A DNA stretch of 64,000 bases from an uncultured Pseudomonadales bacterium (GTDB lineage: Bacteria; Patescibacteriota; Microgenomatia; UBA1400; PJMF01): the NCBI GenBank assembly GCA_964393205.1, contig CAYMSV010000002.1, positions 96,843-160,842 of the forward strand, written 5' to 3'. Below the pieces are notes generated by a model. That model searched no databases, was not told the origin of the DNA, and saw only the letters and a list, made by a program, of their open reading frames with translations. A program made the position numbers and the translations under genes. Positions 14,485 to 62,796 of this stretch are shown here, piece by piece; within the stretch, counting starts at the first letter, position 1; every line of letters starts with the position of its first letter.

Positions 14485-17425
<2,941 letters not shown>

Positions 17426-17608
17426 AATCATTGAAGTCTTCATTTTATTTCTCGACTATTATTGAATAACAGTTGATAAAATTCTTCACATGTTAAAGAG
17501 CACTTATTACTAGCCACCAATTAGTGACTACTTATTAGCCTCTAGAAGTTCCGCTAGGAAATCATCCAAAGCCTAATAAGTAAACACCAATGTTAATTCA
17601 ACTATAAG

Positions 17609-17685
17609 TGGTGGACCCTAAGGGGCTCGAACCCTTGACCTCCACATTGCAAATGTGGCGCTCTAGCCAACTGAGCTAAGGGCCC
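17609..17685 (-). tRNA. tRNA-Ala (anticodon UGC), CCA encoded
   Basis: The reverse complement is GGGCCCTTAGCTCAGTTGGCTAGAGCGCCACATTTGCAATGTGGAGGTCAAGGGTTCGAGCCCCTTAGGGTCCACCA. It shows a cloverleaf with anticodon loop TTTGCAA (TGC), the G3:U70 Ala identity pair (GGG...CCC stem with G-T) and a T-loop GGTTCGAGCC. Confidence 0.9.
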
Positions 17686-41725: not shown

Positions 41726-44622
41726 AAAATAAAAAACAAATCATTCTCTTAACTATCTTAGTTTTTTTGTTTATCTCATTATTATTTTTTCAAAGAAATA
41801 ATAGAAAAACTTTTTGGCAAATTCGTCCTGCTAAAGAAATTGTTTCCGGTGGAGAGTTTGATGGAAAACATATTCTTATTCCCATCGATAGAAATAAAAT
41901 TCAAGCCATTGATCATAAATCTGGAAAAGTCAGCTGGCAATTTGAAGCTGATACTTCCATTAACTCTGGGTTAACAATTATAAATAACGGATTGTTCTTT
42001 ATAACTGAAAATCAAAATCTATTTTCTCTTAATCTTAAAAGCGGAAAATTAATTTGGAAAAAGACCCTAGATTTACAAAGAAACAACCTTCAAGAATACA
42101 AAAAACAACTACTCTTGAGTCAAGCAGGTGGAAGAATTACTTTAATGAATACCAAGGGTGAAATCCTATGGGAAAATTTTTTAGAAATTAATAATACCAA
42201 GCCCTCAGACCAAAATCTAAATAATCTAGAAAAACAAATATCTGACTGGGAAATGTATTTTTCTTATGAAAACGAGCTTATATATGTCACCTTTGAAAAT
42301 TCTATATATAAACTAAGCGGTGAAACAGGGGAATTAATCTGGAGTCAACATTTTGAAAAAGAAATTTTGAGCAAACCTCAACAAATATATGGCGACCTGA
42401 CTTTCATTGATGGAGAAGGTAGCTTGACTAAAGTTGACACAAAGGATGGAAAAATAGTCTGGCAAACACAAGAAAATTTTGAACAAATTACTGAACTTTT
42501 AGAAATAAATAATTTAACGGCAAGTAAGAGACAATTACTAAATGTCGTTGATCAATTTATAAAAACTTTAATTAAAAAAAATCTGTGGATTTCCAATCTG
42601 ATTATGGATAGTCTAGGAGCTTGGAAAGATAACTTAATACAATCTAATTTACTTGCTCTTAATCAAAAAGGCATTTTAAGACGCCTCAGTCACAGTGGTG
42701 AAGAAAAAATTTGGGAGCTTGATACTGAATTAGATAAACCTCGAATTTTAGAAACAAAAAATAAATATATTTTGATTGCTGATCAAAAAATAATTTTAGC
42801 TATCAATCTAGATGGCTATATTGTTTGGCAACAAGAAATTCCCCACATCAAACAACTTTCCTTAGTAACAAAACCTGTTTATAAGTGGTTACCAATCTCA
42901 AACAAACCACAAATTCTAGTAAATAGTTTTGAAAAAAATATTTATGCTCTAGATCATGAATCGGGAAAAATACTTTGGCAATTCAATAGTAATGTACCAA
43001 TAAGCTCAAACACAATGGAGCTACCCAACACTTTATTAGTTATTACTAATAATGGAATTATTTATCAAATTGACAAATTCAAGGGCACTATATCTGAAAA
43101 AATCAAAATTAAACATCAAGTGAAAAATACTAATATAAAGGATAAAGAGATCTTCACCATTGATTTTTTTAGTAAAAAGAATTACTTCACAAGCCCTTTT
43201 TACCAAGTAAAGATAAGTTGTAGTTTTGAGTCTCCAGAAGGGAAAAAATATCCAATAAATGGTTTTTATTATAACTACAATCATTGGCAAGTACGTTTTA
43301 ACCCTCAAGAAATTGGAGATTGGCAGTGGGATTGCATCTTTCAAACCCCAGAATCAGAAAGGTTCTTTTCTGGAAAGTTTTATAGTGAAAAGAAAAAAGA
43401 TCAATTCATTAAAATCGCCGAAAACTCAAATGGTCAATTTTTAACTTTAGACGGAGAGAAAATATTCTTCCCTTTAGGATTAAATCAAACTATTATAGAT
43501 TTTAACCAAAACGGTATCTTTTTTGATGATTTCGCTATTGGAGAAGATCATAAAAATAGAAGGATTCAACTAGATGAATATTTAGATGTATATTTTAAAG
43601 AAAGTGGCTTTAATACTTTTCGTTGGAATCCTGGTAATTATCAATTTTCAGTAGCTTCAATGATCCATTATCCAGAAAACGATTACTCTCTATACAGGGC
43701 TGGATTAGGAGATCACTTACTTGAGAATCTTTATCAAAGAGACATTCAGGTTTATTTAACCCTGTTTGCCTGGGGCTTGCCATTTGGCACCACTGTCAAA
43801 AACTTACAAGAAGAATGGGCCATAAACCATTATTTAGAATACATGGTAGCTCGTTACGGAGCCTATACTTCCGCCTGGGAATTAACAAATGAAGGAGTAT
43901 TGGAAGATGCTACCGCTCACAAATTTTTAAGTAAGTTAAAATCTTTAGATCAAAAAAAATTAGTAAGCATCAGTTTTGAAAAACCCAATTTAAAATCAGT
44001 TGACATCATCTCTCCCCACTGGTATTCAACTAGTACTCCAGAAATTGCAGATACGGAAATTTTAGAAGTAATAAATAAATTTGAAAAAAAAGCTAAACCC
44101 ATTATTTTTGGAGAAATTGGTAATGGAAAGAGTAGTTGGGATAAAAACTCAGCCTTAATCATGCGAGTTAGAGCTTGGGTATCTCTATTTAATGGAGCAG
44201 GTTTAATTTTTTGGAATCAAAGTAATTCAAAAAGTTTTTATAATGAAGCTTTTGAAAATGCTAATCAATATATAGGTGAAGAAGAGCGCACTTACATGAA
44301 AGTAATCAGTGATTTTAGCAAAGAACTAGACGTTACTTTAAAACCAGCAAGTTTTTATAAAAAGATAGGTGGCGATGGTGTTAGAACTTATGGCTTAGCC
44401 TCTGAAAAAGAGTTACTAGTTTATGCCTATCACCACTACAATCAATATACCAATAATGCCACTTTTACAATCAATGTTGATCTCTCAAAACCAGCATCTT
44501 TAGAGTGGATTAATCCCCAAAACGGTGAAGTAATAAGCAGTTATCCTCTCCAAACAGGATCAAACACTATTATTTCTCCTGAATTTAGAGAAGATTTAGT
44601 TCTAAAAATTTCTCTCAGTTAA
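41722..44622 (+). CDS. Membrane-anchored PQQ-like beta-propeller protein fused to a GH-A clan (GH5/DUF4038-like) glycoside hydrolase domain
   Basis: 966 aa with an N-terminal TM. Repeated GK[LIV][IVS]W[QKS] blades (GKVSWQF, GKLIWKK, GELIWSQ, GKIVWQT, GKILWQF) indicate a propeller. The C-terminal TIM-barrel-like region has an NE acid/base (WELTNEG) and a nucleophile-like IIFGEIG. Confidence 0.5.
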   Translation: MKNKKQIILLTILVFLFISLLFFQRNNRKTFWQIRPAKEIVSGGEFDGKHILIPIDRNKIQAIDHKSGKVSWQFEADTSINSGLTIINNGLFFITENQNLFSLNLKSGKLIWKKTLDLQRNNLQEYKKQLLLSQAGGRITLMNTKGEILWENFLEINNTKPSDQNLNNLEKQISDWEMYFSYENELIYVTFENSIYKLSGETGELIWSQHFEKEILSKPQQIYGDLTFIDGEGSLTKVDTKDGKIVWQTQENFEQITELLEINNLTASKRQLLNVVDQFIKTLIKKNLWISNLIMDSLGAWKDNLIQSNLLALNQKGILRRLSHSGEEKIWELDTELDKPRILETKNKYILIADQKIILAINLDGYIVWQQEIPHIKQLSLVTKPVYKWLPISNKPQILVNSFEKNIYALDHESGKILWQFNSNVPISSNTMELPNTLLVITNNGIIYQIDKFKGTISEKIKIKHQVKNTNIKDKEIFTIDFFSKKNYFTSPFYQVKISCSFESPEGKKYPINGFYYNYNHWQVRFNPQEIGDWQWDCIFQTPESERFFSGKFYSEKKKDQFIKIAENSNGQFLTLDGEKIFFPLGLNQTIIDFNQNGIFFDDFAIGEDHKNRRIQLDEYLDVYFKESGFNTFRWNPGNYQFSVASMIHYPENDYSLYRAGLGDHLLENLYQRDIQVYLTLFAWGLPFGTTVKNLQEEWAINHYLEYMVARYGAYTSAWELTNEGVLEDATAHKFLSKLKSLDQKKLVSISFEKPNLKSVDIISPHWYSTSTPEIADTEILEVINKFEKKAKPIIFGEIGNGKSSWDKNSALIMRVRAWVSLFNGAGLIFWNQSNSKSFYNEAFENANQYIGEEERTYMKVISDFSKELDVTLKPASFYKKIGGDGVRTYGLASEKELLVYAYHHYNQYTNNATFTINVDLSKPASLEWINPQNGEVISSYPLQTGSNTIISPEFREDLVLKISLS

Positions 44623-47194: not shown

Positions 47195-48817
47195 CTAGTT
47201 CAAAAGTTTTTCTAACAAAAGAACTTGGAAATCATGATTATTAAATGATAAATAAAAGTTATCCTTAATTATCAGTTTAGAAAAGCTATCTCCTTCAAAC
47301 TCACTAATTCCTTGTGTAAATTTATCAAAACATTGATTGCCAGTCTTATAATCATTATAAACAAGAAAATAGAACCGATTGCCAGCATTATAATTATCCA
47401 AGGACTGATATTTAAAGTTGATTGAATCTCTAATCATAAGTTTTTTATTTATCAAATGATCTATGGGTTGTGCTAAAAATCTAGTTTTTCCTAAATAATC
47501 ATTTTCACAAATATCTTCACCTAAATAATCTCTATTAAAATGGTAAAAAATCATAACATCACTACGATTTAATCTATATTCATCTATTTTTTGAATAATA
47601 GCTTCACTAACGATTTCATTAAAAGCATAAGAACTAGAATCCTTCATACCTGGTTTAGGCAAAACAAGAGAAATATTGTGAAGAAAAAATAATATTAAAA
47701 AAGCAATAATCGGTAGAATTAAAATGATTTTATAAATATTTTTTTTACAATTCAAAATTTGTTTCATTTTTATTGATAAAAAAATAAAAAAAACAATAAC
47801 AATTAAGTCTATCCTATGTGGTGCATAAGGAGCATCTATATTAATTAGAAAATAAGGGGTTAATAAAATCCACAACAAAAGCCAAAAATTATCAAAAACT
47901 TTGTTAGATAAATCTGATTCATGCTTAAAAAACTTATTGATTAATAATAAAAAAATTATGAATATTATAAATAATACTTTCCAAAACACATGTTGATTGT
48001 TAAAAAGCAAACTAAAAAAAACTTCAAAAATGTTCCAATAATGTGTCGTTACCCTACTTAGATTAATTGGCAATAGATTTTCACGATGTTTTAAAATGGC
48101 TAAAATAGATGGCCAATTATTGAGAATTTCAAAAATAAGCTGTGATGAATATGTAATAATAAAAAAAACTAACATTGAATAAACTAATAAAAAGTAACTT
48201 CGCAGAGACGTGTTGTTTAATTTTTTAAAAAATAGATAGGAGTTTAAACAAATAACGGGTAAAATAAAAAATGAAGAAGGATAAATAGTTAAGGCAATGA
48301 AAAAAGAAAATTGGCTTAAAAAAAGAAAAAGTAATTTACTAGATTTTAGAGAAATCAAACCTAAAAAAATTGATAAAGAACTAAAAAAAATGCTTGGATG
48401 AGGATGCCAAACAGTTCTGCTTAAGAAAACATGATAATGCCAAAAAGTAAAAATTCCTAAAAATACAAGACTAATTAGCTTATCTTTATTATTTAACAAA
48501 TATATAGATAAAAATAAAAATAAAATCGAAAATAAACCCATTAAGGCATAAAAAACAGATACTAAAAAAAATTCGCCATGAGCAAGAAAATAAAAAAAAG
48601 AAATTAAATACAAATAGGTTGGTGGTATAAATAAACCACTAATACCAATTGCTGGATTAACTAAGGGAAACTTCTTTTCTAAGTTGATCGTTCTAGCAAC
48701 TTCCAACTCATAACCAACATCAACAGTCATGTCAGAAAATTCCAGATTGGTAAGCCTTAAAAATCCAGCTAATAAAAATAATATTAAGAAGATATTTAGA
48801 AAAATAGCCTTTTTCAT
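47195..48817 (-). CDS. GT-C fold glycosyltransferase (PMT/ArnT family-like), paralog A
   Basis: 540 aa. Its N-terminus aligns closely with that of 51870-53576 (FLRLTNLEFSDMTVDVGYELEVAR versus YLRFYNLQANTLYGDSGYELEKAR). The first-loop acidic motif after TM1 and the 11-13 TM architecture are as in PMT_2/ArnT. Confidence 0.5.
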   Translation of the reverse strand: MKKAIFLNIFLILFLLAGFLRLTNLEFSDMTVDVGYELEVARTINLEKKFPLVNPAIGISGLFIPPTYLYLISFFYFLAHGEFFLVSVFYALMGLFSILFLFLSIYLLNNKDKLISLVFLGIFTFWHYHVFLSRTVWHPHPSIFFSSLSIFLGLISLKSSKLLFLFLSQFSFFIALTIYPSSFFILPVICLNSYLFFKKLNNTSLRSYFLLVYSMLVFFIITYSSQLIFEILNNWPSILAILKHRENLLPINLSRVTTHYWNIFEVFFSLLFNNQHVFWKVLFIIFIIFLLLINKFFKHESDLSNKVFDNFWLLLWILLTPYFLINIDAPYAPHRIDLIVIVFFIFLSIKMKQILNCKKNIYKIILILPIIAFLILFFLHNISLVLPKPGMKDSSSYAFNEIVSEAIIQKIDEYRLNRSDVMIFYHFNRDYLGEDICENDYLGKTRFLAQPIDHLINKKLMIRDSINFKYQSLDNYNAGNRFYFLVYNDYKTGNQCFDKFTQGISEFEGDSFSKLIIKDNFYLSFNNHDFQVLLLEKLLN

Positions 48818-50173: not shown

Positions 50174-50905
50174 TCATTTTGATATTTCAATCAATCTGTT
50201 GCAATATTTTTTTAAGTGATCAACAAAATGGCTGACCAATATGAGGGTAACATCGTTATTAAACATCTTTTTCATTACTTGCCTAGACTTTTCTTGAAAA
50301 TCCCTGTCTCCCATACTCATTACCTCATCCAACAAGAGAATGTTAGGTTTTGCATGAATAGCTATACTAAAACCCAACCTCAACTTCATTCCATTAGAAT
50401 AAGTATATAAAGGAGCAGTAACAAAATCTCCAATTCCAGCAAAATCAATTATTTGATTAAATTTGTCTCTAATCTCTTCTCTAGACATACCAATAACTAA
50501 ACCGTTTAAAAAAATATTTTCTTGTCCAGTTAAATCTGGATGAAAACCGGCCGCTAAATCTATTAAAGAAATAATCCTCCCTTTTGTCTGTACTTTTCCA
50601 GAAGTTGGCGAACTAATTCTAGCAATAATTTTTAGTAAAGTTGTTTTTCCAGCACCATTTGCTCCGAAAAGACCAATTTTTTCTCCCTTGTGAATTTTTA
50701 AATTAACATTTTCTAAGGCCCAATACTCCTCTTTTTTTTCAAAACGTAAAATTCGATTAACGTCCTCAATGAGAGTTGGTTTATCGTGGGTAATAATATA
50801 TTTTTTACTAACATCAGTTAAATTGATTACTACCTCACCAGATTTTTTTCTATTACGCAAAGTTTTTTCTTTAAAAACTGTCATATTTCTCCAAATTATA
50901 ACCAA
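50174..50905 (-). CDS. ABC transporter ATP-binding protein, Wzt/TagH/KpsT type (polysaccharide export)
   Basis: Walker A GANGAGKTT, signature-like YSNGMKLRLGFSIAIH and Walker B ILLLDEV. No C-terminal substrate-binding extension. It overlaps the upstream permease gene. Confidence 0.8.
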   Translation of the reverse strand: MVIIWRNMTVFKEKTLRNRKKSGEVVINLTDVSKKYIITHDKPTLIEDVNRILRFEKKEEYWALENVNLKIHKGEKIGLFGANGAGKTTLLKIIARISSPTSGKVQTKGRIISLIDLAAGFHPDLTGQENIFLNGLVIGMSREEIRDKFNQIIDFAGIGDFVTAPLYTYSNGMKLRLGFSIAIHAKPNILLLDEVMSMGDRDFQEKSRQVMKKMFNNDVTLILVSHFVDHLKKYCNRLIEISK

Positions 50906-51702
50906 TCATCAAAATTGACATTTTCTTTTTTGAAAACACGATAACCAAAGTAAAAAATGCCAATAATTAAAATAACTGCTACCCAAATAAAGTTTATTAA
51001 AGTAATAGGCAATCCCATCAAAGCAAAGTGAAATAATTCAATAATAGTTGTCATAGGATTTAAATAAAAAATTGGCCACAAAAATTCTGGCAATAAGTTT
51101 AGTGCATAGATCACTGGAGTGGCATAGAACCACAACATAACTGCCAACTGAATTATAAAATTGATATCACGAAACCTGACGTTTAAAGAAGAAGTAAAAA
51201 GCGATAAACCAATTGTAAAAAACAATAACAAAATTAACGCTGGAAAAAGCCATAACATACGTGAGACATAAAAAACCAGTTGTATTAAGCCATAATTTTC
51301 AAAAAATAATTTGTCTCCAATTAAAGCGCCTATTAATAATAATAAAGCTACTAAAAAATGAAAGAAATTGGAAAAAATAATTGATAAAACAATACTTTCT
51401 CTAGGAAATTTGGCCTTTTTAATTAAATTTCTCTCATAAAAAAAAGCTGGAGTAGATTTGGTCAAACTTTGAGAAAAAAAGTTCCAAGGCAAAAGTCCTG
51501 CAAATAAATATAGAAAATAGTTATCAACAGAAACCGGTACAAAAAACTGAAAAACAAAACCCATAACCACCATTTGTAAAATTGGATTTAAAATTATCCA
51601 CAAAAAACCAAAAGTAGCTCGTTTATAGCGAGCTTTAATCTCTTTTTCAGTCATGGCTACTAAAAAATCAAACCAGTGACGTCGCTTATTCTTCAAGAAC
51701 AT
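50896..51702 (-). CDS. ABC-2 type transporter permease (Wzm/TagG-like)
   Basis: 268 aa with six TM. The N-terminus (EIKARYKRATFGFLWIILNP) matches the ABC-2 permease N-terminal amphipathic helix motif. Confidence 0.7.
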   Translation of the reverse strand: MFLKNKRRHWFDFLVAMTEKEIKARYKRATFGFLWIILNPILQMVVMGFVFQFFVPVSVDNYFLYLFAGLLPWNFFSQSLTKSTPAFFYERNLIKKAKFPRESIVLSIIFSNFFHFLVALLLLIGALIGDKLFFENYGLIQLVFYVSRMLWLFPALILLLFFTIGLSLFTSSLNVRFRDINFIIQLAVMLWFYATPVIYALNLLPEFLWPIFYLNPMTTIIELFHFALMGLPITLINFIWVAVILIIGIFYFGYRVFKKENVNFDDWL

Positions 51703-51869: not shown

Positions 51870-53576
51870 TTATTTTAACTTGCTTTGTTTTTTTATTAAA
51901 AATATAACCTCTGGCGAATAATTTTCATTTTGATCTACAAAATAATAAGAGCTAAGAGTTAAAAATAAGTGCCTATTGTGCACATCTATATTTTTTAAGT
52001 TAAATAAAACTTCTTGTAAACATGCTTCTGATTCTTGAATAATTAATTCTGTTTCATAATTTCCCGAATCACAAATCAAAAAATAATAATCAATATTATT
52101 CAAAAAATGAGTGTGATCTGAAAGAAAACGGATAAATAGATTATAATTTTCTACAGACCGTTCTTCATTAAAGCTCGATTTATTTATAAAAAAATCGTTA
52201 GATTGAGCTATATGTCTTAATAATCTTAAATAATTTAAGGAATTATTGGCGTCATAAGTAAATGTATCTTCTCCAAAGTTTGCCTTGTTTAAAACCATTG
52301 TTCTGCTTCTTTCTAAATTTTTTGTGACAATCTCATCAGCAATTAAGTTAGAAACTTTCTCATAAGAATAAATGGTTCCCGAAGACCACTTGTCAGATTT
52401 AAAAATAAGAAAAGAGTTTCGAATATTTATATAAAAATAAATAGATAAAAAAATAATAACAGGTAACAGTAAACAAATTTTTAGAAAGCTGTTTGCTTTG
52501 AAACTTAAAATAAGCTCTAAACCTATGGCCAATAAAATAAAAAACAAGAAAAACAGAACATCAAGTCTGTGAAAGTCTTGAGCTCCTGCTATATTCAATA
52601 GATAAACAATGGCTAAAATCCACAAATATAAAAAGGGATTAATATAAATTTTAGTTAAAAAATTAAGTCTTTTTTTATAAAAAACTAACAAACTGAACAA
52701 AAAAAACAAAAATAAAAAAAATAATAAATGAAGTTGTGGGGAAACATCCCAAGAAAAGAAAACTTGAGATAAAATTTTAGAAATGTTGAAAAAAGTTTCA
52801 ACTATTATTTCAGAATTAATGCTTACATTATCTCGAAAAATTCCTAATACAGAAGAAAGCCGTGAGAAAAAACCAAAATTTATCTCGTTGACCAATAAGG
52901 GAAGATAAACTAATAGTATAAATACTGAGTTACTCAATAAAATATAAATTAAACTTTTTATCTTGGAATAAGCTTCAATTCTGTTAAAAAAAACATATGA
53001 ATAATATAAAACTATTGGTAAAACAAAGATCGGAGAAGGATAAATTGATAAAGATATAAAAAATAAAAATTGTCCTAAGAATAAGTATGGTTTTTTCTTC
53101 ATTCTTAAAGATAAAGTTAGAAACAAAAACGATAGTGATAAAAAAAACAATACAGGGTGAGGATGCCAAATCATTCTGCTAACATGAATAAAATAGTGAC
53201 TAATTGAAAAAATTGCAATAAATAAAACAGCAATGCCTTTATTTTTGCTTAAAATATAAACTAAAAAAGAAAAAATAATAACAGTCAAGAAACCCATTAA
53301 AGCAAATAACGCAGAAATAATTTTTATTTCGCCTCCAGCAATAAAATATAAGAATGCTATTAGGTAAAGGTAGGTCGGTGGAATCACAACATCTACCAAC
53401 TCTAAAGTTGGACCCAAAAGGGGTAACTTTTTAAATTGATTAATTTGCCTGGCTTTCTCTAATTCATATCCTGAATCACCATACAAAGTATTGGCTTGCA
53501 GATTATAAAATCTTAAATATGCAGCTAATATTATAAAAAATAAGACAAGTAAAAATATAAATTTATTTCTTTTCAT
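51870..53576 (-). CDS. GT-C fold glycosyltransferase (PMT/ArnT family-like), paralog B
   Basis: 568 aa; N-terminal ~150 aa are highly similar to 47195-48817. Confidence 0.5.
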   Translation of the reverse strand: MKRNKFIFLLVLFFIILAAYLRFYNLQANTLYGDSGYELEKARQINQFKKLPLLGPTLELVDVVIPPTYLYLIAFLYFIAGGEIKIISALFALMGFLTVIIFSFLVYILSKNKGIAVLFIAIFSISHYFIHVSRMIWHPHPVLFFLSLSFLFLTLSLRMKKKPYLFLGQFLFFISLSIYPSPIFVLPIVLYYSYVFFNRIEAYSKIKSLIYILLSNSVFILLVYLPLLVNEINFGFFSRLSSVLGIFRDNVSINSEIIVETFFNISKILSQVFFSWDVSPQLHLLFFLFLFFLFSLLVFYKKRLNFLTKIYINPFLYLWILAIVYLLNIAGAQDFHRLDVLFFLFFILLAIGLELILSFKANSFLKICLLLPVIIFLSIYFYINIRNSFLIFKSDKWSSGTIYSYEKVSNLIADEIVTKNLERSRTMVLNKANFGEDTFTYDANNSLNYLRLLRHIAQSNDFFINKSSFNEERSVENYNLFIRFLSDHTHFLNNIDYYFLICDSGNYETELIIQESEACLQEVLFNLKNIDVHNRHLFLTLSSYYFVDQNENYSPEVIFLIKKQSKLK

Positions 53577-53738: not shown

Positions 53739-54986
53739 ATGTTTGGCGTTAAAACTAAAATTATTAATCGATTGAAGAAAAATTTTTATAATATTAATTT
53801 TAATAGTTTAACGTCTTCTGTAAAAAGAAAAACTTTAGCCTTGCTAGTAAAATCAGAACTAGAGAGAGAACTTCAATACGTAGATATTCAACAACCCATA
53901 GCTAAAAAAACCAATCATTTTGCTTCTTATATACTAAAAAAAACCACTGACTATATGCCAAATAATTTGGGCAATTGGTCAATTAAAAAACCAGGCACTC
54001 TGAGTGGAAAACTCGAACTAACCATCATTGAAACTCTAAAAAAACAATACAATTGTAACAAAGAGATTGTTGGTCATTTTGGATCAGGGACAACAGAGGG
54101 CAATATTTATGCTGCCTGGATTGGAAGAAATTACTTATCCAAAAAACTAAAAAGCAAAAATTTTGATAAGCTGATCCTAATCAAAAGTAGTTTAAGCCAC
54201 TATTCTCTTGATAAAGCAAGCGATATTATAGGCATTAAAAACTTTGAAGTTAGTATTGATCAAACTAAGTTCAATCTTGATTTAGCAGAATTTGAGCTCA
54301 TCATTAATAAACTTTATAAGCGTGGCTACAGAGGTTTCTTAGTTCCCCTCACTCTAGGCTATACCGTGACAGGCACCGATGATGATTATCTTGCAATTAT
54401 TAAAATTGTAGAAAAATTTAAGAAAGAAAAAAAAGATTGTGAATTCTTCATATGGCTTGATGCTGCCTTCACTGGAATAAGTAAAATATTTGATCAAAAA
54501 AAATTTGAACCATTTAAAAACAAACAAATACAATTATTAAGTACAGATTTACATAAATTTTTAGCCGTTCCTTATCCGGCTAGCGTTTTGCTTTACAGAA
54601 AAAATTTGCTAAAACATGTTGCCAAGCCAATTCCCTACATTGATCAACTAGATAGTACTTTACTGGGTTCTAGATCTGGAAACATGGTTATAGCTAGTTG
54701 GTTTACCTTAATTAACTTAAATCATCAAAAAATGCGCAAGCTCATTAACGAGAGCCTGAAGGAAAAAGAAAATTACTTAGACAAAATTGTCAAAGAGAAA
54801 ATCAAGGTTACCATCATTAATAATAAAAATAGTTTACAAGCTTGTTTAATTTCTCACAATAAAAAAGCTGACGAAATATTATCTAAAAAATATGGTCTCT
54901 CTAGCATCGAATATCCTCTACTAATTAAAAATAAGACACAAGTTACCAAGATTTATAAATTATATTTTTTTACAACACTGAGATAA
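53739..54986 (+). CDS. PLP-dependent group II decarboxylase-like protein
   Basis: 415 aa. HFGSGTTEGNIYAAWIGRN resembles the Gly-rich cofactor loop. STDLHKFLAVPYP is the S-x-x-HK PLP-lysine motif of MfnA/GAD/SPL-type enzymes. WLDAAFTG is also present. Confidence 0.5.
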   Translation: MFGVKTKIINRLKKNFYNINFNSLTSSVKRKTLALLVKSELERELQYVDIQQPIAKKTNHFASYILKKTTDYMPNNLGNWSIKKPGTLSGKLELTIIETLKKQYNCNKEIVGHFGSGTTEGNIYAAWIGRNYLSKKLKSKNFDKLILIKSSLSHYSLDKASDIIGIKNFEVSIDQTKFNLDLAEFELIINKLYKRGYRGFLVPLTLGYTVTGTDDDYLAIIKIVEKFKKEKKDCEFFIWLDAAFTGISKIFDQKKFEPFKNKQIQLLSTDLHKFLAVPYPASVLLYRKNLLKHVAKPIPYIDQLDSTLLGSRSGNMVIASWFTLINLNHQKMRKLINESLKEKENYLDKIVKEKIKVTIINNKNSLQACLISHNKKADEILSKKYGLSSIEYPLLIKNKTQVTKIYKLYFFTTLR

Positions 54987-54988
54987 TA

Positions 54989-55834
54989 ATGACACAATCA
55001 TCAATTAAAAAAATCTATCATCAATCCAAATTTAATCTGGGTTTCAAAAGAAACTTAGAAAAATATTTCGGTTTTGAAACTTTTTTGAAAAACCAATACA
55101 ACAAAAGTAAGTTCTTTTTTGATAATAAAATTATTTACCCCGTATTTGCAAAAATTAGTCATTATTTATATCAACAAGTTATTGATTATTACGGAGCTGA
55201 TTATAGGTGGAACGATCAAAAAAGCCAAAATATAGATAAAAAAACCAATAATTATGGCTATGGTCTCTTTCATTACTCAATGATTAGAAATCAAAAACCA
55301 AAGCGTGTTTTATGTATCGGTTCAATGTACGGGTATATTCCCTACATGATGGCTAAAGCCTGCCAAGATAATAATTTTGGTAGCATTGATTTTGTTGACG
55401 CTAATTATAATCTTAAAGATGATGAGAATAATCAGAATCATTATTTTGGAGAAGGTTTCTGGAATAAAGACCGCGTAGCAAATCATTTTAATTATTTATT
55501 GAATCAAAAATTCATAAACACCTACGTCATGCGCACTGATCAATTTGCTCATAAATATTCAAGTAGAAAATACGATTATGTTTGCTTAGACGGGGATCAT
55601 TCATACAAAGGAGTAAAAACAGATTTTAAGCTATTTTGGCCAAAAATTAAGAAGAATGGCTTTCTTTGTTTACATGATATTGATCTTGTAGTTGACCCTA
55701 AAAATCCAGATTTTATGAATTTAGAGTTCAACTATAAAAAATTTTGGGAAGAATTAGTAGCAAAAAAGAGTTTTCAATATAAATTTGAAATCTCTAATCA
55801 ATATTCAGGCCTAGGTTTTATTCAAAAAAAATAA
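54989..55834 (+). CDS. Class I SAM-dependent methyltransferase (Methyltransf_24 / CmcI-TylF-like)
   Basis: 281 aa with VLCIGSMYGY and DYVCLDGDHSYKGVKTDFKLFWPKIKKNGFLCLHDI. These are typical of the cephalosporin hydroxylase / macrocin O-MTase-like family. Confidence 0.55.
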   Translation: MTQSSIKKIYHQSKFNLGFKRNLEKYFGFETFLKNQYNKSKFFFDNKIIYPVFAKISHYLYQQVIDYYGADYRWNDQKSQNIDKKTNNYGYGLFHYSMIRNQKPKRVLCIGSMYGYIPYMMAKACQDNNFGSIDFVDANYNLKDDENNQNHYFGEGFWNKDRVANHFNYLLNQKFINTYVMRTDQFAHKYSSRKYDYVCLDGDHSYKGVKTDFKLFWPKIKKNGFLCLHDIDLVVDPKNPDFMNLEFNYKKFWEELVAKKSFQYKFEISNQYSGLGFIQKK

Positions 55835-55839: not shown

Positions 55840-56802
55840 TTATACTTTTATCAATGCTTTTTTCAATCTTTGACGAATTGTATACCACAAATTAAACATA
55901 TAGATTGTCTTATCCTCAACACCAGCCTCTTTAAAAGAGTTTCTTCTATCAACACAGGTGGCACAAGCATCACCACATTGAAATAGCTTATGTTGATAAC
56001 AAGACCAAGTTTTTTCAAAAGGAACCTTTAAATGTTTACCTAGCTTAATTGTTTCTTTTTTATCTAACATAAGCCCCATTTCCCTTTCCAAAAAAACTGA
56101 TGAAAAATTCCAATCATATTCAGCTTTAGCGCCACAAATGGACAATAAGGTTGTTCTAAGCGAAGTAAAGGATTGGCTAGGAATCACAAAACCGTCAGAA
56201 AAATTTATACCTGTATATATATCTTTAATGTTAATGCCCTTGGTATATTTTAAATAATCAGCATAAAACACTGCATAAAAAGACATTAAATAAGGTGAGA
56301 TTCCATTAGCTCTAGTAATTACAACGTTAGATTGATTATTAACCATCTTATTGTTTTGGTTGAAATTATTTAGTAAATCATTGGCAGTGAGAAGTTTTTC
56401 ATTACTTAAGTCTAAAACTTCTTTTGGAGTAGGATTAACATGTAAATGAAAAGGTTTTATGTAATTCTCTGGATATTTTGCTGAAAAATGTTTTTCTAAA
56501 TTTTTAACGGCTCTCAACTCTCTCTTAGCTCTTTTCTTTAATCCTCTATCAATAATTAAAGGATAAACTTGATAATTATATATATCCAATAAAGCAGCCC
56601 AAGCTACGGTCGAATCTATCCCTCCAGAAAGCAATAAAATAACTTTTGTTTTAGCTTTTGGTTTGCGAAATACATAACCCCTTTTTTTGATAAAAAAATT
56701 ATCAACAGCGTCAATTAAATCCAAATCTTCTACTTTTCTTTCTTTAAGCAAATTATCAAACCTTGATTTTGAAATTTTAGGCAAATATTTCTTTTTTCTC
56801 AT
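55840..56802 (-). CDS. QueC-like (ExsB family) PP-loop ATPase, extended
   Basis: 320 aa. The PP-loop is VILLLSGGIDSTVAWAAL. The C-terminal segment WSCYQHKLFQCGDACATCVDRRNSFKEAGVEDKT matches the QueC Zn-binding tail (CY...CG.C..C..R..GF..AG..D). There is an extra ~50 aa N-terminal basic extension. Confidence 0.55.
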   Translation of the reverse strand: MRKKKYLPKISKSRFDNLLKERKVEDLDLIDAVDNFFIKKRGYVFRKPKAKTKVILLLSGGIDSTVAWAALLDIYNYQVYPLIIDRGLKKRAKRELRAVKNLEKHFSAKYPENYIKPFHLHVNPTPKEVLDLSNEKLLTANDLLNNFNQNNKMVNNQSNVVITRANGISPYLMSFYAVFYADYLKYTKGINIKDIYTGINFSDGFVIPSQSFTSLRTTLLSICGAKAEYDWNFSSVFLEREMGLMLDKKETIKLGKHLKVPFEKTWSCYQHKLFQCGDACATCVDRRNSFKEAGVEDKTIYMFNLWYTIRQRLKKALIKV

Positions 56803-56911
56803 CGGCTTTCATCTTAATCTAAAGACTCCTGCTTTTCAAGAAAAAAGAAACATCATAACGATCGTTGACAACTCCTAATAATTGAGTCTAGAATAATAAA
56901 GAGATAAAAAT

Positions 56912-56989
56912 ATGAAAAAATATACAAAACCAAGCCTGAAAAAAAGCAAAATCAAGATAAACTTTGCTTTTACTATTGTCAAAACATAA
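56912..56989 (+). CDS. Small ORF (25 aa), candidate precursor/leader peptide
   Basis: ATG at 56912 with AAAGAG 8 nt upstream. It translates to MKKYTKPSLKKSKIKINFAFTIVKT* and ends 22 nt before the PqqD-like gene on the same strand. It is not in the ORF track. Confidence 0.25.
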   Translation: MKKYTKPSLKKSKIKINFAFTIVKT

Positions 56990-57011
56990 ATTAGAAAATT
57001 TATAATCCTTT

Positions 57012-57320
57012 ATGTTTAATTCTGAAAAACTGTTTTCTAGTTTTGTTTTTTGTCGCTCAAGTGTTAATTTTAGCAAAAAAAAAGATACTTTCTTAGTTTT
57101 ATCTCAAGACCGCAAACACATTCTGGAACTTAAAGATGTATCTTTTAGTATTTGGCAAAATTTAGAAAAACCAATCTCTTTTTCTGCATTGATAAAGAAA
57201 CTCCAAAAGGAGTATGACGTGGCAGAAGAAGTTTTAGAAAAAGATTTAAAATCTTGGTTAAAAGAAGCTTTAAAAGAAAAGATTATTAAAAAAGTAAAAT
57301 TAAACAACCTTAATCATTAA
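57012..57320 (+). CDS. PqqD-like protein (RiPP recognition element family)
   Basis: 102 aa. The stretch FLVLSQDRKHILELKDVSFSIWQNLEKPISFSALIKKLQKEYDVAEEVLEKDLKSWLKEALKEKII follows the PqqD pattern (l.l.....g..y.LN.tg..iW.ll.g..t..ei...l...Y.v......Dv..fl..L...gli). Confidence 0.55.
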   Translation: MFNSEKLFSSFVFCRSSVNFSKKKDTFLVLSQDRKHILELKDVSFSIWQNLEKPISFSALIKKLQKEYDVAEEVLEKDLKSWLKEALKEKIIKKVKLNNLNH

Positions 57321-58343
57321 GCCTAAAAAATTTTTACGATCGACATAGCCTGGGTCTGAATACAAATTACTGTCGCCTTTAGTGATAATTTTGCCTTTTT
57401 CTAGACCATGAAAACGATGCACCACTACGTTTTTCAGCTCCTGATGCCAAAAAGCAATAATGTCTCCCTTTTTTAAATTTTTAAAGTTAATTCTCTTTAT
57501 CAAAACTTCATCACCTTTTAAGACCAAGGGTTCCATACTTCCACTGCCAGCAGTTGCTACAAACTTTTCACCTATTGGTAAATTTTTTAAAAAATTAAAC
57601 ACCAACCCAGCCTTTTTATTATCAGGCATCTTCTCTAGCACCAAAGAGTTGCAATATTTTTTATATTCTAGCAACACTTCCTGACCACCATCCATAAACA
57701 ACTGACCCTTCTCTAACCAAATAAAACGATTACATAGTCTACGAAGTAGAGGTAATAGATGGCTACATAAAACAATTGTTTTGCCTTGCTTAAAAATCTC
57801 TTCTACCTTGTCAAAAGCTTTTTTTTGAAAATCATTGTCTCCTACCACAATGCCCTCATCAATAATAAAAATATCTGGATCACAGTGTACAGCTATAGAA
57901 AAAGCTAAACGTAAAATCATTCCCGATGAATAAGTATATAGAGGTCGGTCTATAAATTGAGCAATACCAGAAAATTCAATAATTGTACTTTCTAATTTTT
58001 TAATTTTATTCAGTGAAGTACCCAAAACTACAGCATTTAAATAAATATTTTCCCTACCAGAGGATTGAGGATAAAAACCAGCAGTTAAATCAATCAGAGA
58101 AATAATTTTCCCAAAATGCTTAACCCGACCCTCACTAGCTTGAGCTATACCAGTAATTAACTTTAGTAAAGTTGTTTTTCCAGCTCCATTATTACCTAAA
58201 ACAGCTACTTTTTCTCCTTTATATATTTTTAAGTCAATGTTTTTTAAAGCATAAAAAGTTTTTTCTTTGTCAGAGTCAATTGAAGGATAAATCTTATTAA
58301 CCTTGTCCAGTTCTATTGCTAATCTTTGCTTTTGTTTAGACAT
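57300..58343 (-). CDS. Wzt-type ABC transporter ATP-binding protein fused to a C-terminal Sec11/SipW-type (S26) signal-peptidase-like domain
   Basis: 347 aa. The N-terminal ~230 aa are an ABC ATPase (GNNGAGKTT, YSSGMILRLAFSIAVH, IFIIDEG). The C-terminal ~100 aa read GSGSMEPLVLKGDEVLIKR...GDIIAFW...VVHRFHG...ITKGDSNLYSD. This reproduces SPase I boxes B (SGSMEP), C, D (VHR, the ER/archaeal His type) and E (GDN..D). Confidence 0.7.
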   Translation of the reverse strand: MSKQKQRLAIELDKVNKIYPSIDSDKEKTFYALKNIDLKIYKGEKVAVLGNNGAGKTTLLKLITGIAQASEGRVKHFGKIISLIDLTAGFYPQSSGRENIYLNAVVLGTSLNKIKKLESTIIEFSGIAQFIDRPLYTYSSGMILRLAFSIAVHCDPDIFIIDEGIVVGDNDFQKKAFDKVEEIFKQGKTIVLCSHLLPLLRRLCNRFIWLEKGQLFMDGGQEVLLEYKKYCNSLVLEKMPDNKKAGLVFNFLKNLPIGEKFVATAGSGSMEPLVLKGDEVLIKRINFKNLKKGDIIAFWHQELKNVVVHRFHGLEKGKIITKGDSNLYSDPGYVDRKNFLGLMIKVV

Positions 58344-58346
58344 TTA

Positions 58347-59141
58347 CTATAACCAATCATCTACTTTTTTACTTTGTTTTCTAAAAAAATCTAGAGAAAA
58401 AACTAAAAATAATATAGAAAATAAGCCATTTATCAAATATTCCTGAAAACTCATGCCTAAATCTAAAAATATCGAGCGAAACATTTCAATGAACTGAAAT
58501 AAAGGGTTTAAAGACAAGATTCCAGCTAAATTGTTAGGAAGTAAGTCGCGAGCATAAAAAATTGGTACCATAAAAAAAGATAGTTGAATAATAAAATCTA
58601 TTACCACCATAAACTTTTTAACTCTTGCAACTAAAATTGAAAAAAACAGAGCTACAGCTAGAGAAAAAAAGGCTAAAAAAATTGATAAAACACTAAATAA
58701 AAAAAAGGATTTAATAAAATAAGCAAAAGCCACTCCAAAATTAACAGAAGAAAAACTTACAAAAAGCAATATTAATAAACTAGTAATAAAATAAGGAATA
58801 AAACTTACTATCAAAGTTTTTATCAATAAAAGTTCTCTAGGAAAAACCGCTTTTTTAATAAGATTTTGTTCATCAACTAAAATTATTGCAGAACTCTTAA
58901 TAAATTTGGCAAAAAAACTCCAGGAGATTAATCCTGATAATATAAATAAAAAATAATTATTATCTTTAGAAACAAGCATAAAAGATAAAATGAAAGAAAG
59001 AATAAATGCTTTAATAATAGGAGTGCTAATTTCCCATACTAAGCTCAAAAAACTCCTTTTACTACTCACGTTCAAATCTTTTTTTGTCATCAGAAGCAAA
59101 AAATCTAAGTATGGAAATTTTTCTTTATATTCTTGAGTCAT
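58347..59141 (-). CDS. ABC-2 type transporter permease (Wzm-like), partner of the Wzt-peptidase fusion
   Basis: 264 aa with six TM helices. It lies 3 nt upstream of the ATPase gene on the same strand. Confidence 0.7.
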   Translation of the reverse strand: MTQEYKEKFPYLDFLLLMTKKDLNVSSKRSFLSLVWEISTPIIKAFILSFILSFMLVSKDNNYFLFILSGLISWSFFAKFIKSSAIILVDEQNLIKKAVFPRELLLIKTLIVSFIPYFITSLLILLFVSFSSVNFGVAFAYFIKSFFLFSVLSIFLAFFSLAVALFFSILVARVKKFMVVIDFIIQLSFFMVPIFYARDLLPNNLAGILSLNPLFQFIEMFRSIFLDLGMSFQEYLINGLFSILFLVFSLDFFRKQSKKVDDWL

Positions 59142-60624: not shown

Positions 60625-62796
60625 TTAAAAAGAATACCGTTCATCTAATTTTTGTAAAATAATTTTCTTTTGCTTATCATCTAAACCAACTTCTAAATGA
60701 CCTGTTAAATAACCCTTAACACCTGCTTCTTTATCAAGCATTGCTTTTACTAATTGTTCAAACTTTAATAGCTGATTTTCTTCAAAAAGATTAGTTGTCA
60801 CTTGTCTATACAAAAATAAATAATGATGATAGTCGCCACTTTCTTTGGCTGAAAAATCTTTAAAATTTAAAAAAAAGTGACTTAATTGATCTAAATTGTT
60901 TTCATCTAAAAAAACTGCTCGCTCTTTAAAGAATATATAAGAATCAAAAAAATATGCTGACTGATAAAAATAGCTAGCTCTCGACCAATCACCTTGCAAA
61001 TAAGCATTTTGTGCTAAATTATAAATTTGCCTCGCTAAATCTATTTGTTGTTTGTAGCTAATAAAATAGTAATCATTAAACATTTTATAGTCTCTTTTGA
61101 TTTCAAATAGCTTCTTCAAGAGAATCTCTGAATCTTGTAGAGACATATCTTTGAAATTAACTTGATTTACAAAAGCCACTGGATCTATCTTAGCCAAATC
61201 TAAATATAAATCTTTCTTTCTTGATTTATCTAAATCTTGCAAATTTAAAAAACGAGTAATAAATTCGCCATCATAACGATACCAACTGTACAGATTCTCA
61301 TAATTAACAGAGTTAATTGCTGAATCATTCATTGGAGCTTTGGCTGCAAAATTAAGAAATGGTGTAAATTTTAACCAAAGCTCAGGTTTCTTTGACTGCC
61401 AATAAACTGTCAAAAGATCAGCAAGCACTAAAGAAACAGTAACAAAAAATAAAAATGATAAATAAAAAAACCACAACTTGTTTGATTTTTTTTGAGCATG
61501 ATTTTTAACATCACCTGACAAAATAAGAGCCAAAAATATAAGTGTCAATAAAAAAATAATAAAAAAATTCCAATCAAAATCTAGCATTGCATTTATTAAA
61601 GAACTAATAGCAGCCAAATAAAGAAAATTATTTAAAGATTTTTTTGAGTCTAAAACTAGACTTCCAGCTTGATAGAAAATAAACAAACTAAAGAGAATAA
61701 AACTTCCTCCACCGATAACACCCATCTCTGCCAAATTATGAAAAAAAATGTTATGTGCATAAGCGCTATGAGTTTCATTAGCTATTGGAAAACGACGAGA
61801 TACATATTTAAAAGAACCTAAACCATAACCAACAAGTGGATAGTTTTTAAAACTCAACCAAGCTTGTCTCCAATAAAAAAACCGACTGTTCTCACTTACT
61901 GAAATACACAAATCCTTACGATATAAACGCAAAGGACACTTACGCTCATCATTAATGAGTAATGGCAAAGACAAAAGTAAAAAAATCAAGGCAGCTGATA
62001 AAAAACTCAAGACGATACTTTTAATTAAAAAGTAAAAAATTTTATTTTTACGTAACTTATAAAAATCCTTTTTGAGTAATAAAAAAATAATAAAAAATTG
62101 CACAATACTAATAAACAAAGCCCAACGAGATAAACTAATCAATAATAAAAAATAAGAACTAATTAATAAAAAAATATCAAAAAATGATTTAAGTTTATTT
62201 TTAAAAAAATAAGAAGAATTTTTTTTGAATAAATGCCACCAAACTAGAGGTAAAAGTAAAAGTAAAAAAGCTGCGTAATGATTGTGGCCATAGCTCCTAA
62301 CTAATAAGTTCATTCCTTGAAAAAAATCTTGTGAATTGCTGACAAAACTCAAAACAATAACCAAAATATTCAATATGAAAGTAAGTAATAAAAGATATTC
62401 AACAAACAGTTGGGCCTTAAAATACTTATTTTTAAGTTTTAAAACGAATAGAAAAATACTAATAGCTGTTAAATAAAACAAATATTTTTCCAAAGAAAGA
62501 GGTTTGTGGTGAGAAAAAATGCTGCTGACAAAGGCTAGTAATAAGAAACAACAACTTAAAACACAAGTTTTATCTAAAAAAATTTCTTTTATTTTTAGTG
62601 AAAAAACACTATTTTTATCTGAATTTGAAGACTTTAATATCACTTTCTTGTCTTTTTTTACAAAAGTATAAGTTAGCAGGAATAATGACCACAAGGCAAA
62701 TAAATAGAATTTGTATTCTGTTTCCATCAAAAAAAGAGACAACAGAGCAAGCGTTGAAAAAAATGGATAAAAGTATTTAAACAAAAAATTAGTCAT
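60625..62796 (-). CDS. O-antigen ligase/Wzy_C-domain membrane protein with long C-terminal soluble extension (paralog of 32498-34852)
   Basis: 723 aa with SYGHNHYAAFLLLLLPLVWWHLF, a Wzy_C block HNIFFHNLAEMGVIGGGSF and an SRW loop (LLISLSRWALFISIVQ). A ~300 aa C-terminal non-membrane region follows. Confidence 0.55.
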   Translation of the reverse strand: MTNFLFKYFYPFFSTLALLSLFLMETEYKFYLFALWSLFLLTYTFVKKDKKVILKSSNSDKNSVFSLKIKEIFLDKTCVLSCCFLLLAFVSSIFSHHKPLSLEKYLFYLTAISIFLFVLKLKNKYFKAQLFVEYLLLLTFILNILVIVLSFVSNSQDFFQGMNLLVRSYGHNHYAAFLLLLLPLVWWHLFKKNSSYFFKNKLKSFFDIFLLISSYFLLLISLSRWALFISIVQFFIIFLLLKKDFYKLRKNKIFYFLIKSIVLSFLSAALIFLLLSLPLLINDERKCPLRLYRKDLCISVSENSRFFYWRQAWLSFKNYPLVGYGLGSFKYVSRRFPIANETHSAYAHNIFFHNLAEMGVIGGGSFILFSLFIFYQAGSLVLDSKKSLNNFLYLAAISSLINAMLDFDWNFFIIFLLTLIFLALILSGDVKNHAQKKSNKLWFFYLSFLFFVTVSLVLADLLTVYWQSKKPELWLKFTPFLNFAAKAPMNDSAINSVNYENLYSWYRYDGEFITRFLNLQDLDKSRKKDLYLDLAKIDPVAFVNQVNFKDMSLQDSEILLKKLFEIKRDYKMFNDYYFISYKQQIDLARQIYNLAQNAYLQGDWSRASYFYQSAYFFDSYIFFKERAVFLDENNLDQLSHFFLNFKDFSAKESGDYHHYLFLYRQVTTNLFEENQLLKFEQLVKAMLDKEAGVKGYLTGHLEVGLDDKQKKIILQKLDERYSF

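Follow-up and report, generated by a model that had tools for sequence, protein, structure and literature searches.

A candidate RRE-dependent pathway for a very short peptide in a Patescibacteria contig: a QueC-like enzyme and a signal-peptidase-type domain on an ABC-2 exporter

We analysed a stretch of 64,000 nucleotides (hereafter the window) from contig CAYMSV010000002.1 of assembly GCA_964393205.1 (positions 96,843 to 160,842), assigned to the Patescibacteriota. It harbors a compact cassette composed of a 25-codon peptide gene, a PqqD-type RiPP recognition element (RRE), a QueC-like PP-loop ATPase and a Wzm/Wzt exporter whose ATPase bears a signal-peptidase-type domain. We suggest that this cassette probably encodes an RRE-dependent pathway for a very short peptide, of the type that yields RiPPs (peptides made by ribosomes and modified after translation). 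The proposal is built on the domain identities and catalytic residues of the proteins, on conservation of the peptide and its motif, on the linkage of the genes at related loci and on gene fusions.

An earlier note on this DNA had placed five of the elements within 3.3 kilobases (kb), and all of its coordinates are confirmed. The cassette consists of the following features.

53739-54986, plus strand: pyridoxal phosphate (PLP)-dependent decarboxylase, group II (PF00282, E=1e-11); proposed accessory tailoring or amine supply
54989-55834, plus strand: Methyltransf_24, a class I S-adenosylmethionine (SAM)-dependent methyltransferase-fold protein (PF13578, E=1e-14)
55840-56802, minus strand: QueC-family PP-loop ATPase of a distinct subfamily, 320 amino acids (aa) (PF06508, E=4e-19); proposed RRE-dependent peptide modifier
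56865-56894, plus strand: promoter-like site TTGACA-18-TAGAAT; a consensus match (11/12) only
56912-56989, plus strand: precursor peptide gene of 25 codons, MKKYTKPSLKKSKIKINFAFTIVKT, with YxxPxL leader and predicted core IVKT
57012-57320, plus strand: PqqD-family RRE, 102 aa (PF05402, 43 bits, cutoff 23.4)
57300-58343, minus strand: Wzt-S26 fusion, 347 aa, a TagH/Wzt-like ATP-binding cassette (ABC) ATPase with peptidase tail
57639-58343, minus strand: Wzt/TagH-type ABC ATPase domain of the fusion, residues 1-235 (PF00005)
57303-57572, minus strand: C-terminal SipW/Sec11-type (S26B) serine peptidase domain of the fusion (TIGR02228); proposed leader peptidase
58347-59141, minus strand: Wzm-type ABC-2 permease (PF01061, E=7.5e-12)

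The small open reading frame (ORF) lies 109 nucleotides (nt) from the start of the divergent QueC-like gene and its 3' end is separated from the PqqD gene by 22 nt, while the 3' ends of the convergent PqqD and Wzt-S26 genes overlap by 21 nt. The methyltransferase gene starts only 3 nt past the stop of the decarboxylase gene, and both directly adjoin the QueC-like gene. The promoter-like site is the best sigma-70-like match in the 5.9-kb region and ends 17 nt before the ATG of the small ORF. An Rfam scan of the cassette found no RNA family.

Judging from its conservation, the 25-codon ORF is a translated-looking gene. Related loci were gathered via homologues of the Wzt-S26 fusion protein and of the QueC-like protein, and 16 of them provided a set of 17 peptides. 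The earlier note had seen the layout of a precursor and its RRE in the position of the small ORF upstream of the PqqD-like gene. The 22-nt spacing is as it stated, and a motif-bearing small ORF accompanies the RRE gene in 14 of the 16 related loci. The orthologous ORFs have 20-30 codons, or 47 and 51 codons in two loci, and each is preceded by an AAGGA-like (Shine-Dalgarno-like) sequence. Examples are MKKQLKKYVKPELKKNKVKINFAFAASK; MKKQAKKYSKPELKKSKIKINFAFAVAK; MKKYNKPVLKKAKVKISIAAVEMN; MKKYTKPSLKVKDIKVSLIYVE; MKNTKKTYIKPSIRKIKVVATAAIAE; MKKSYVKPESQAVSVEVALIEVE. Codon changes between orthologous peptides are synonymous as often as non-synonymous. For example, the codon of conserved Leu6 (counted from Tyr) is CTG, TTG, CTC, CTA or CTT depending on the locus. 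Such a pattern would be expected of purifying selection. Further, when a deliberately loose form of the motif was applied, 15/181 small ORFs within 350 nt of an RRE matched, compared with 16/1595 elsewhere (Fisher p=5e-8), and two of these 16 adjoin a QueC-like gene instead.

The leader motif YxxPxL takes the form KKYTKPSL in the window and is conserved among related peptides. RREs of lasso and LPP (linear polyphosphorylated peptide) systems bind the motif [Y/W]xxPx[L/V/I/F/A] (PMC13381572; PMC10368454). The window leader carries this known RRE-binding motif, and we predict that it is bound likewise. The earlier claim that the small ORF belongs to a peptide pathway was open to failure if the ORF were not conserved; orthologous ORFs are in fact kept together with the motif.

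Two loci show how the arrangement of these genes can vary. L001 has a second PqqD and QueC-like pair (7755-9072) with its own peptide gene, MKKYIKPRLKKVILKALLARSE, which is on the other strand and there overlaps this QueC-like gene at the latter's 3' end; the locus therefore holds two precursor/enzyme sets and one exporter. In L002, the peptide gene (11024-11092, minus strand) lies downstream, not upstream, of the PqqD gene, and the convergent Wzt-S26 gene reaches into it with its 3' end; the QueC-like and PqqD genes are co-oriented and overlapping. As L002 shows, the genes may change their order, but the set as such is kept.

For comparison of the peptides we used a ruler that starts at the conserved Tyr (position 1), with positions counted by ourselves in 16 peptides. 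Pro stands at position 4, an aliphatic residue at position 6 and a hydrophobic one at position 15. Ala occupies position 16 in 8/16 peptides, and 10/16 have A, G, S or T at position 18; among all 17 peptides, seven terminate exactly at position 19. The small residues at positions 16 and 18 resemble the -3/-1 rule that type I signal peptidases follow. Cleavage of the window peptide would accordingly fall after AFT and release IVKT as the core. If cut after position 18, these peptides would have their Tyr at -18, close to its place in lasso leaders (-17; PMC10368454) and LPP leaders (-16; PMC13381572). In most loci the predicted core has only 1-6 residues: IVKT (window), ASK, VAK, EMN, LGILE, E (five loci), D, Y, SS and AVLKM. 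Two putative cores are long, GETPKQCPDGSCVCASCACAR (L010) and IFDPKVLNPNKLFAENLS, with 18-21 residues (L010, L012). The L010 precursor (6576-6719, plus strand) has a Cys-rich core of 21 residues with Gly1 and Asp9, as in lasso peptides; in its cassette the QueC-like enzyme is present and a lasso cyclase is absent.

The tail of the Wzt protein was described in the earlier note as a Sec11/SipW-type peptidase-like domain that should match PF00717/PF10502 or Peptidase_S26. The peptidase assignment is supported: residues 258-344 match TIGR02228 (archaeal/SipW-type signal peptidase I) with 63.7 bits, above the curated cutoff of 51.85, whereas PF00717 (Peptidase_S24) and PF10502 (S26) match the same residues just under cutoff. 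The tail carries the Ser, His and Asp of Sec11/SipW and is not a carbohydrate-binding module. It aligns to human SEC11A and SEC11C across the SGSMEP, VHR and KGDxN motifs, and S269, M270, P272, H309, R310, G323 and D324 are invariant in 30 Wzt-S26 fusions. With this Ser-His-Asp set of endoplasmic reticulum/SipW-type signal peptidases, the tail is predicted to be active. A search for homologues with the S26 domain alone as query returned fragments of the fusions and ordinary SipW-like genes beside Peptidase_M73/TasA-like genes; by homology, the Wzt-fused domain is a derivative of SipW-type peptidases. The fusion protein, for which the AF2 model is confident (pLDDT 87), has no transmembrane or hydrophobic segment (maximum KD19 score 1.52). 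For this reason the active site of the peptidase must be cytoplasmic, unlike that of true signal peptidases; where S26B signal peptidases have a membrane anchor, this tail sits on a cytosolic ATPase.

The ATPase part has TagH and Wzt as its best NCBIfam matches (E ~1e-51 to 5e-48, under the equivalog cutoffs) and also matches the PmtA and PmtC models. In related loci, the gene directly upstream of the fused ATPase is always that of Wzm. Wzt proteins carry a C-terminal cap-binding (carbohydrate-binding) module, and the corresponding PF14524 was found on protein P0120. The window also has an ordinary Wzm/Wzt pair (50174-51702, minus strand) whose ATPase bears no additional C-terminal domain; a distance of 5.6 kb separates it from the fused pair. 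Presumably it is the housekeeping exporter of glycan or teichoic acid and the source of the fused pair.

The QueC-like protein differs considerably from QueC itself. With TIGR00364, the QueC equivalog model, the window protein reaches 49.8 bits, where the cutoff is 150.3. Throughout its family (alignment A1), neither the SGGxDS loop nor the four Cys of the zinc motif vary. The Cys are spaced as C-x7-C-x3-C-x2-C in the window protein, with a middle gap of x2-x4 across the alignment, and as C-x8-C-x2-C-x2-C in canonical QueC (PMC13329287). The canonical motifs YGQxHxxE, VPxRN and YPDC, which mutagenesis proved essential in QueC (PMC13329287), are missing from the family; YGQ occurs in 1/172 members and YPDC in 0/172. 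Relative to canonical QueC, these proteins have gained an N-terminal extension of ~50 aa and an insertion of ~35 aa. A profile search of 1.8 billion representatives recovered 232 family members at E<=1e-30. Among the 172 examined, 36 have a C-terminal PqqD fusion and one (P0180) is fused to an S26 domain; another member, P0265, is fused to a Ham1/ITPase-type nucleoside triphosphate pyrophosphatase domain. The best PDB sequence match of the family profile is Cap9 of the CBASS system (9nto_B, E=3e-9), and a fold search with the QueC-like model gave generic PP-loop matches only (NcsA, GMP synthase, YcfA, TtuA, TilS, LarE; TM 0.3-0.4). NCBIfam and Pfam contain no model specific for this subfamily. 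A search of plasmids returned only a canonical Streptomyces QueC (YGQRH, VPNRN, YPDC), and no cultured carrier was found.

The partner of this enzyme is the RRE, which adjoins it or is fused to it in 17 of 18 loci. The PqqD-like assignment made in the earlier note holds in the profile search (PF05402, with the score listed above), and the best NCBIfam match of the protein is lasso_PqqD_Bac (lasso peptide PqqD chaperone). Likewise, the proposed PP-loop tailoring enzyme and ABC-2 exporter with fused S26-type leader peptidase have domain assignments that pass profile searches.

We annotated 18 independent loci with hidden Markov models (HMMs). The recurrent set comprises a short peptide, a PqqD-type RRE, a QueC-like ATPase and a SipW/Sec11-type peptidase domain; its usual companions are the Wzm/Wzt ABC-2 exporter, Methyltransf_24 and the PLP decarboxylase. 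The S26-type domain was found wherever the flanks were long enough, except in L084. It is fused to Wzt in 11 of the 18 loci and forms a stand-alone protein of 129-164 aa in L006, L009, L012, L085 and L089. In L085, the separate 129-aa S26 gene lies directly beside an unfused Wzt, which is the split form of the fusion. Altogether we counted 30 Wzt-peptidase fusions, 36 QueC-like-RRE fusions and one QueC-like-peptidase fusion. Recurrent linkage of these genes, which the earlier note had left to neighbourhood analysis, is hence backed by fusions, and these tie the parts of the cassette into one predicted system.

The earlier note further listed a PLP decarboxylase, a SAM methyltransferase and a radical SAM/SPASM gene as possible tailoring enzymes. 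The former two adjoin the QueC-like gene, recur elsewhere and remain candidates for such a role. Methyltransf_24 is present in 14/18 loci, often in two copies; for the window protein, no informative NCBIfam or PDB relative was found. The PLP decarboxylase is present in 11 loci, in eight as group II and in three as group IV. The latter, L010, L085 and L088, have a non-homologous enzyme of the group IV Orn/Arg decarboxylase family in place of group II (PF02784 in L085 and L088; an HMM of our own in L010). We argue from this replacement that decarboxylation itself is what is selected. The nearest solved structures to the window decarboxylase are serine and histidine decarboxylases. In L005 (3304-5645), broken-frame fragments of an extra Methyltransf_24 and PLP decarboxylase lie beside the intact pair and look like decaying duplicates. 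The radical SAM gene had to be dropped from the cassette. The sole one among the ORFs scanned (22-63 kb) is at 35963-37087, within the glycan cluster; it is 19 kb distant, stands among glycosyltransferases, has no SPASM hit and is absent from the conserved cassette elsewhere.

Some distant loci are informative as to the nature of the family. L012 (3929-12353) contains YcaO, a nitroreductase, a Hint-domain protein, a QueC-like-RRE fusion, a second RRE and an S26 domain, together with a sulfatase and an S26-NTP_transf_5 fusion. By gene content, this distant member stands in an unmistakable, plain RiPP cluster context, and the hybrid cluster links the QueC-like family to genes of LPP/paeninodin type. 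The P0145 locus holds a minimal set of radical SAM/SPASM, QueC-like and PqqD genes and a 149-aa protein without Pfam hit, which may be an S26 domain; all are situated amid housekeeping genes, and methyltransferase, decarboxylase and transporter genes are lacking.

We infer the binding by the RRE, the position of the cut, the QueC-like chemistry, the roles of the decarboxylase and methyltransferase and the exported species to be as follows. The 25-aa precursor and the PqqD protein would be co-transcribed from their own promoter. The PqqD-type RRE would bind the N-terminal YxxPxL of the peptide and offer its C-terminal end to the QueC-family PP-loop ATPase. At the expense of ATP, this enzyme would adenylate a carboxylate; the most likely one is the C-terminal alpha-carboxylate, the only group common to all peptide tails. 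A nitrogen nucleophile, either ammonia or an amine that the PLP decarboxylase supplies and Methyltransf_24 methylates, would then displace the adenylate and leave an amide. There is some precedent in the QueC family, whose enzymes adenylate a carboxylate and then form an amide or nitrile (PMC13329287); formation of an amide to a protein amine is also reported (10.1101/2025.04.06.647259). Nevertheless, being extrapolated from this family by analogy, the presumed modification chemistry is the weakest link of our model. Next, the cytosolic SipW/Sec11-type domain on Wzt would cut after A-x-small, 18 residues from Tyr (AFT|IVKT), so that the leader is removed as the product enters the Wzm/Wzt channel. 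Finally, the Wzm/Wzt ABC-2 transporter would export the short product, much as bacteriocins leave the cell by ABC exporters with a C39 peptidase. The SipW-like LppS of the LPP system cuts the YxxP leader only with the RRE LppB, and mutants in catalytic Ser, His and Asp are inactive (PMC13381572). Owing to that system, there is experimental precedent for the first step (RRE binding) and the last one (leader cutting), and for these only. With its six to eight genes, the system is compact enough to be directly testable by heterologous expression.

Several points weigh against this proposal. Firstly, cleavage after position 16, which in the window would fall at NFA|FT, could equally be read from the peptides. 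Secondly, the predicted cores are unusually short and consist of a single residue in seven loci (Glu in five, Asp and Tyr in one each). Thirdly, lipid-linked glycans are the cargo for which Wzm/Wzt-type transporters are chiefly known, and glycan genes surround every locus. Fourthly, the substrate pocket of the QueC-like enzyme is remodelled, so its substrate is not readable from homology, and the fold matches include sulfurtransferases. Further, L084 has no RRE, peptidase, peptide or transporter genes within 8 kb. It instead combines (8001-12709) a QueC-like gene with a PLP decarboxylase, two Methyltransf_24 and a spermine-synthase-like methyltransferase, which hints at a peptide-independent use of the QueC-like/decarboxylase/methyltransferase trio. 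Lastly, the product, its transcript and the enzyme activities are all predicted from the genes.

Single-residue cores fit better with a scaffold-peptide route to a small molecule than with a classical RiPP. The peptide would then be a handle, on whose C-terminus the enzymes build a modified amino acid or a di- to tetrapeptide, later released by S26. The pathways of PQQ, mycofactocin and pearlin/3-thiaglutamate may serve as models. A cut after position 18 would free one residue from 7/17 peptides and 2-5 residues from most others; moreover, the peptides are just 20-30 residues long, and a decarboxylase and a methyltransferase are typical small-molecule enzymes. We still find this route unlikely, as the tails vary by locus (IVKT, ASK, VAK, EMN, E, SS), unlike the invariant residues of PQQ and mycofactocin precursors, the L010 and L012 cores run to 18-21 residues, and the presence of a dedicated ABC exporter, with a peptidase fused to it, speaks rather for peptide secretion.

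Another possibility, raised in the earlier note as a peptide-glycan conjugate, is that the product is a peptide-tagged glycan. The QueC-like enzyme would join the C-terminus of the peptide to an amine on a lipid-linked glycan, that substituent being the product of the decarboxylase; the S26 domain of Wzt would then read the peptide as an export signal and clip it, and 1-6 residues would stay on the polymer. The transporter is most like the TagH/Wzt glycan exporters, its peptidase domain occupies the exact place of the C-terminal cap-binding module of Wzt, and genes of GT4, GT2, WecG, Wzy_C and Bac_transf type surround all loci. In Campylobacter jejuni, pairs of a PLP decarboxylase and an ATP-dependent amide ligase amidate uronic acids of the capsule, which favors the idea. 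If it were true, envelope glycans of bacteria of the candidate phyla radiation (CPR) would be decorated with 1-6 ribosomally encoded residues; this would mean a new coupling of translation to glycan export and a new job for the signal-peptidase fold. We regard it as distinctly improbable, given that the P0145 locus, amid its housekeeping genes, is devoid of glycan and ABC genes and that L012 is a YcaO-type RiPP cluster. ABC-2 exporters can also carry peptides, and the ATPase matches PmtA and PmtC models as well. Besides, LPP and paeninodin clusters are found in polysaccharide loci too, with no glycan linkage shown (PMC13381572).

A lasso-like or cyclic peptide would require the QueC-like enzyme to replace the Asn-synthetase-like cyclase and S26 to replace the B2 cysteine protease. 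The new N-terminus would attack the adenylated carboxylate to give a macrolactam or a head-to-tail cyclic peptide. Here the genes can be matched one-to-one in function to lasso A, B1, B2, C and D, the leader resembles that of lasso peptides in its motif and in the spacing of Tyr (-18 versus -17), and the RRE has the lasso PqqD as its best NCBIfam match. The L010 core GETPKQCPDGSC... has Gly1 and Asp9, and the QueC-like-S26 fusion P0180 would suit coupled cleavage and ligation. We nonetheless give this reading very little credence: the cores of the window peptide and its closest relatives have no Asp/Glu, many cores of 1-3 residues are too short for cyclisation, and just 1/17 peptides is lasso-like.

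Conjugation of the Cap9/QatC type, in which 7-carboxy-7-deazaguanine or another carboxylic acid is attached to an amine of the peptide, is suggested by the top PDB match of the family profile, Cap9, and by QueC-family enzymes that modify protein N-termini (10.1101/2025.04.06.647259; PMC13279940), yet it is scarcely believable with the deazaguanine-handling motifs YGQxHxxE, VPxRN and YPDC missing (for their roles see PMC13329287) and with TGT-like, CD-NTase and QatABD partner genes not found at the cassette. Anti-phage defence (Qat or type IV CBASS) was rejected, there being generic homology only and no partner genes. A microcin C-like peptidyl-nucleotide was not adopted either, for want of a conserved Asn as the C-terminal residue; a SAM-dependent transferase with a PLP decarboxylase resembles MccD and MccE of microcin C.

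The cassette of the window lies in more than 40 kb of surface-glycan genes (22014-44622 and 60625-62796). They include at least four Wzy_C/O-antigen-ligase-like proteins, GT4 enzymes, WecG/TagA, a carbamoyltransferase, a polysaccharide deacetylase, GDSL esterases and an AsnB-like GATase protein. In five loci, a protein of ~900-1040 aa with a PQQ_2 beta-propeller and DUF5060 is encoded no more than a few kb from the cassette; it may belong to the same surface-structure programme:

Window, 41722-44622, plus strand: PQQ_2/DUF5060 protein
L084, 13824-16952: PQQ_2/DUF5060 protein
L087, 10589-13053: PQQ_2/DUF5060 protein
L088, 12143-13059: PQQ_2/DUF5060 protein
L090, 2234-5026: PQQ_2/DUF5060 protein

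On either side of the unfused transporter pair a polytopic membrane protein is encoded, of 540 and 568 aa (47195-48817 and 51870-53576, minus strand). The two are paralogues with similar N-termini, have no Pfam hit and look like undescribed proteins of glycosyltransferase-C or polymerase type. Elsewhere in the window (14278-17685, minus strand) there are genes for 23S rRNA, 5S rRNA and tRNA-Ala(TGC). A 779-aa ORF is found in place of an adjacent 16S rRNA gene, so the rRNA genes of this organism appear unlinked, as has often been reported for CPR bacteria. This stretch is the sole GC-rich part of the window (0.44 versus ~0.30). Patescibacteria, with their tiny genomes, are generally regarded as nearly devoid of secondary metabolism. 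Encoded beside surface-glycan genes, the predicted products of 1-6 residues would be candidates for signals or envelope decorations in an episymbiotic lifestyle.

How does the cassette relate to known systems? By gene content, the LPP system (PMC13381572) is the closest one described, and the cassette falls outside it. Common to both are a discrete RRE of the PqqD type, a leader peptidase that resembles SipW (signal peptidase I of archaeal type, with catalytic Ser, His and Asp), a YxxPx[V/L] leader, a small residue at -1 and a location in polysaccharide loci. LPP, however, comes without the QueC-like enzyme, Methyltransf_24 and PLP decarboxylase, whereas our peptidase is fused to or adjoins an ABC-2 Wzt ATPase. 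The precursors have 20-30 aa here (47 and 51 aa in two cases) and 35-200 aa in LPP, and the hosts are Patescibacteria instead of Bacillota. The LPP core genes for HprK-like kinase, NTP transferase and MsbA-like exporter were found neither in the window cassette nor in other Wzt-fusion loci, and only the YxxPxL part of the LPP leader consensus YxxPxVLxHQxIxFET is shared. On the other hand, L009 and L012 carry an NTP_transf_5 domain, which suggests shared ancestry with LPP. The earlier note did not recognise the gene combination as a described system. That statement remains valid for the whole, as a QueC-like RiPP enzyme with a transporter-fused signal-peptidase domain is described for this role in no paper or curated model that we found. 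It needs qualification in one respect: since description of the LPP family (Popov et al. 2026, PMC13381572), the pairing of an RRE with a SipW-like leader peptidase is no longer unprecedented. If our assumptions are correct, RRE-guided SipW-like leader peptidases would be extended from Bacillota to Patescibacteria.

Lasso clusters share with the cassette the YxxPxL leader at a similar distance, a B1-like RRE, an ATP-dependent enzyme of the PP-loop superfamily and an ABC exporter. They differ in that our enzyme is of the QueC family and not asparagine-synthetase-like, the protease is a serine S26 enzyme and not a transglutaminase-like cysteine one, and most cores are too short and without ring Asp/Glu. 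The window peptide, for example, has no acidic residue at all and hence no Asp/Glu at core positions 7-9. Lasso cyclase and B2 protease domains were not found in the cassette; the sole GATase-domain protein (30495-32501) lies 25 kb off in the glycan cluster.

The PCAT/AMS systems likewise join a cytosolic leader peptidase to an export ATPase and couple cleavage to export. Their peptidase, however, is a C39 Cys enzyme at the N-terminus of a type I ABC half-transporter, while here an S26B Ser-His domain is on the C-terminus of a separate ABC-2 ATPase subunit; the transporter fold differs as well. Profile searches of the cassette gave no C39 hit, and there is no double-glycine leader.

With QueC, Cap9 and QatC, our enzyme shares the SGGxDS PP-loop, the C-terminal four-Cys motif and the expected mechanism of adenylation followed by substitution. 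It differs by lack of the three substrate motifs and by its partners, an RRE and a peptide in place of TGT-like or Qat proteins; the QatC model gives the window protein 29 bits against a cutoff of 280. A link of QueC or PF06508 to PqqD, RREs or RiPPs was made in no paper that we found. If the proposed pathway is real, it represents a new RiPP-type class and the first one with a QueC-family PP-loop enzyme modifying the peptide, and the QueC scaffold would gain a role beyond those in deazaguanine synthesis, protein conjugation and cofactor/salvage (PMC13329287).

Finally, the Wzm/Wzt and TagGH exporters have the closest ATPase and permease sequences, the same Wzm-then-Wzt order and a similar glycan neighbourhood. 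In our cassette, by contrast, the carbohydrate-binding module is replaced by a signal-peptidase-type domain that is predicted to be catalytically intact. This would make it the first domain of such type that we could find on an ABC-2 ATPase, and an independent invention of the peptidase-on-exporter design.

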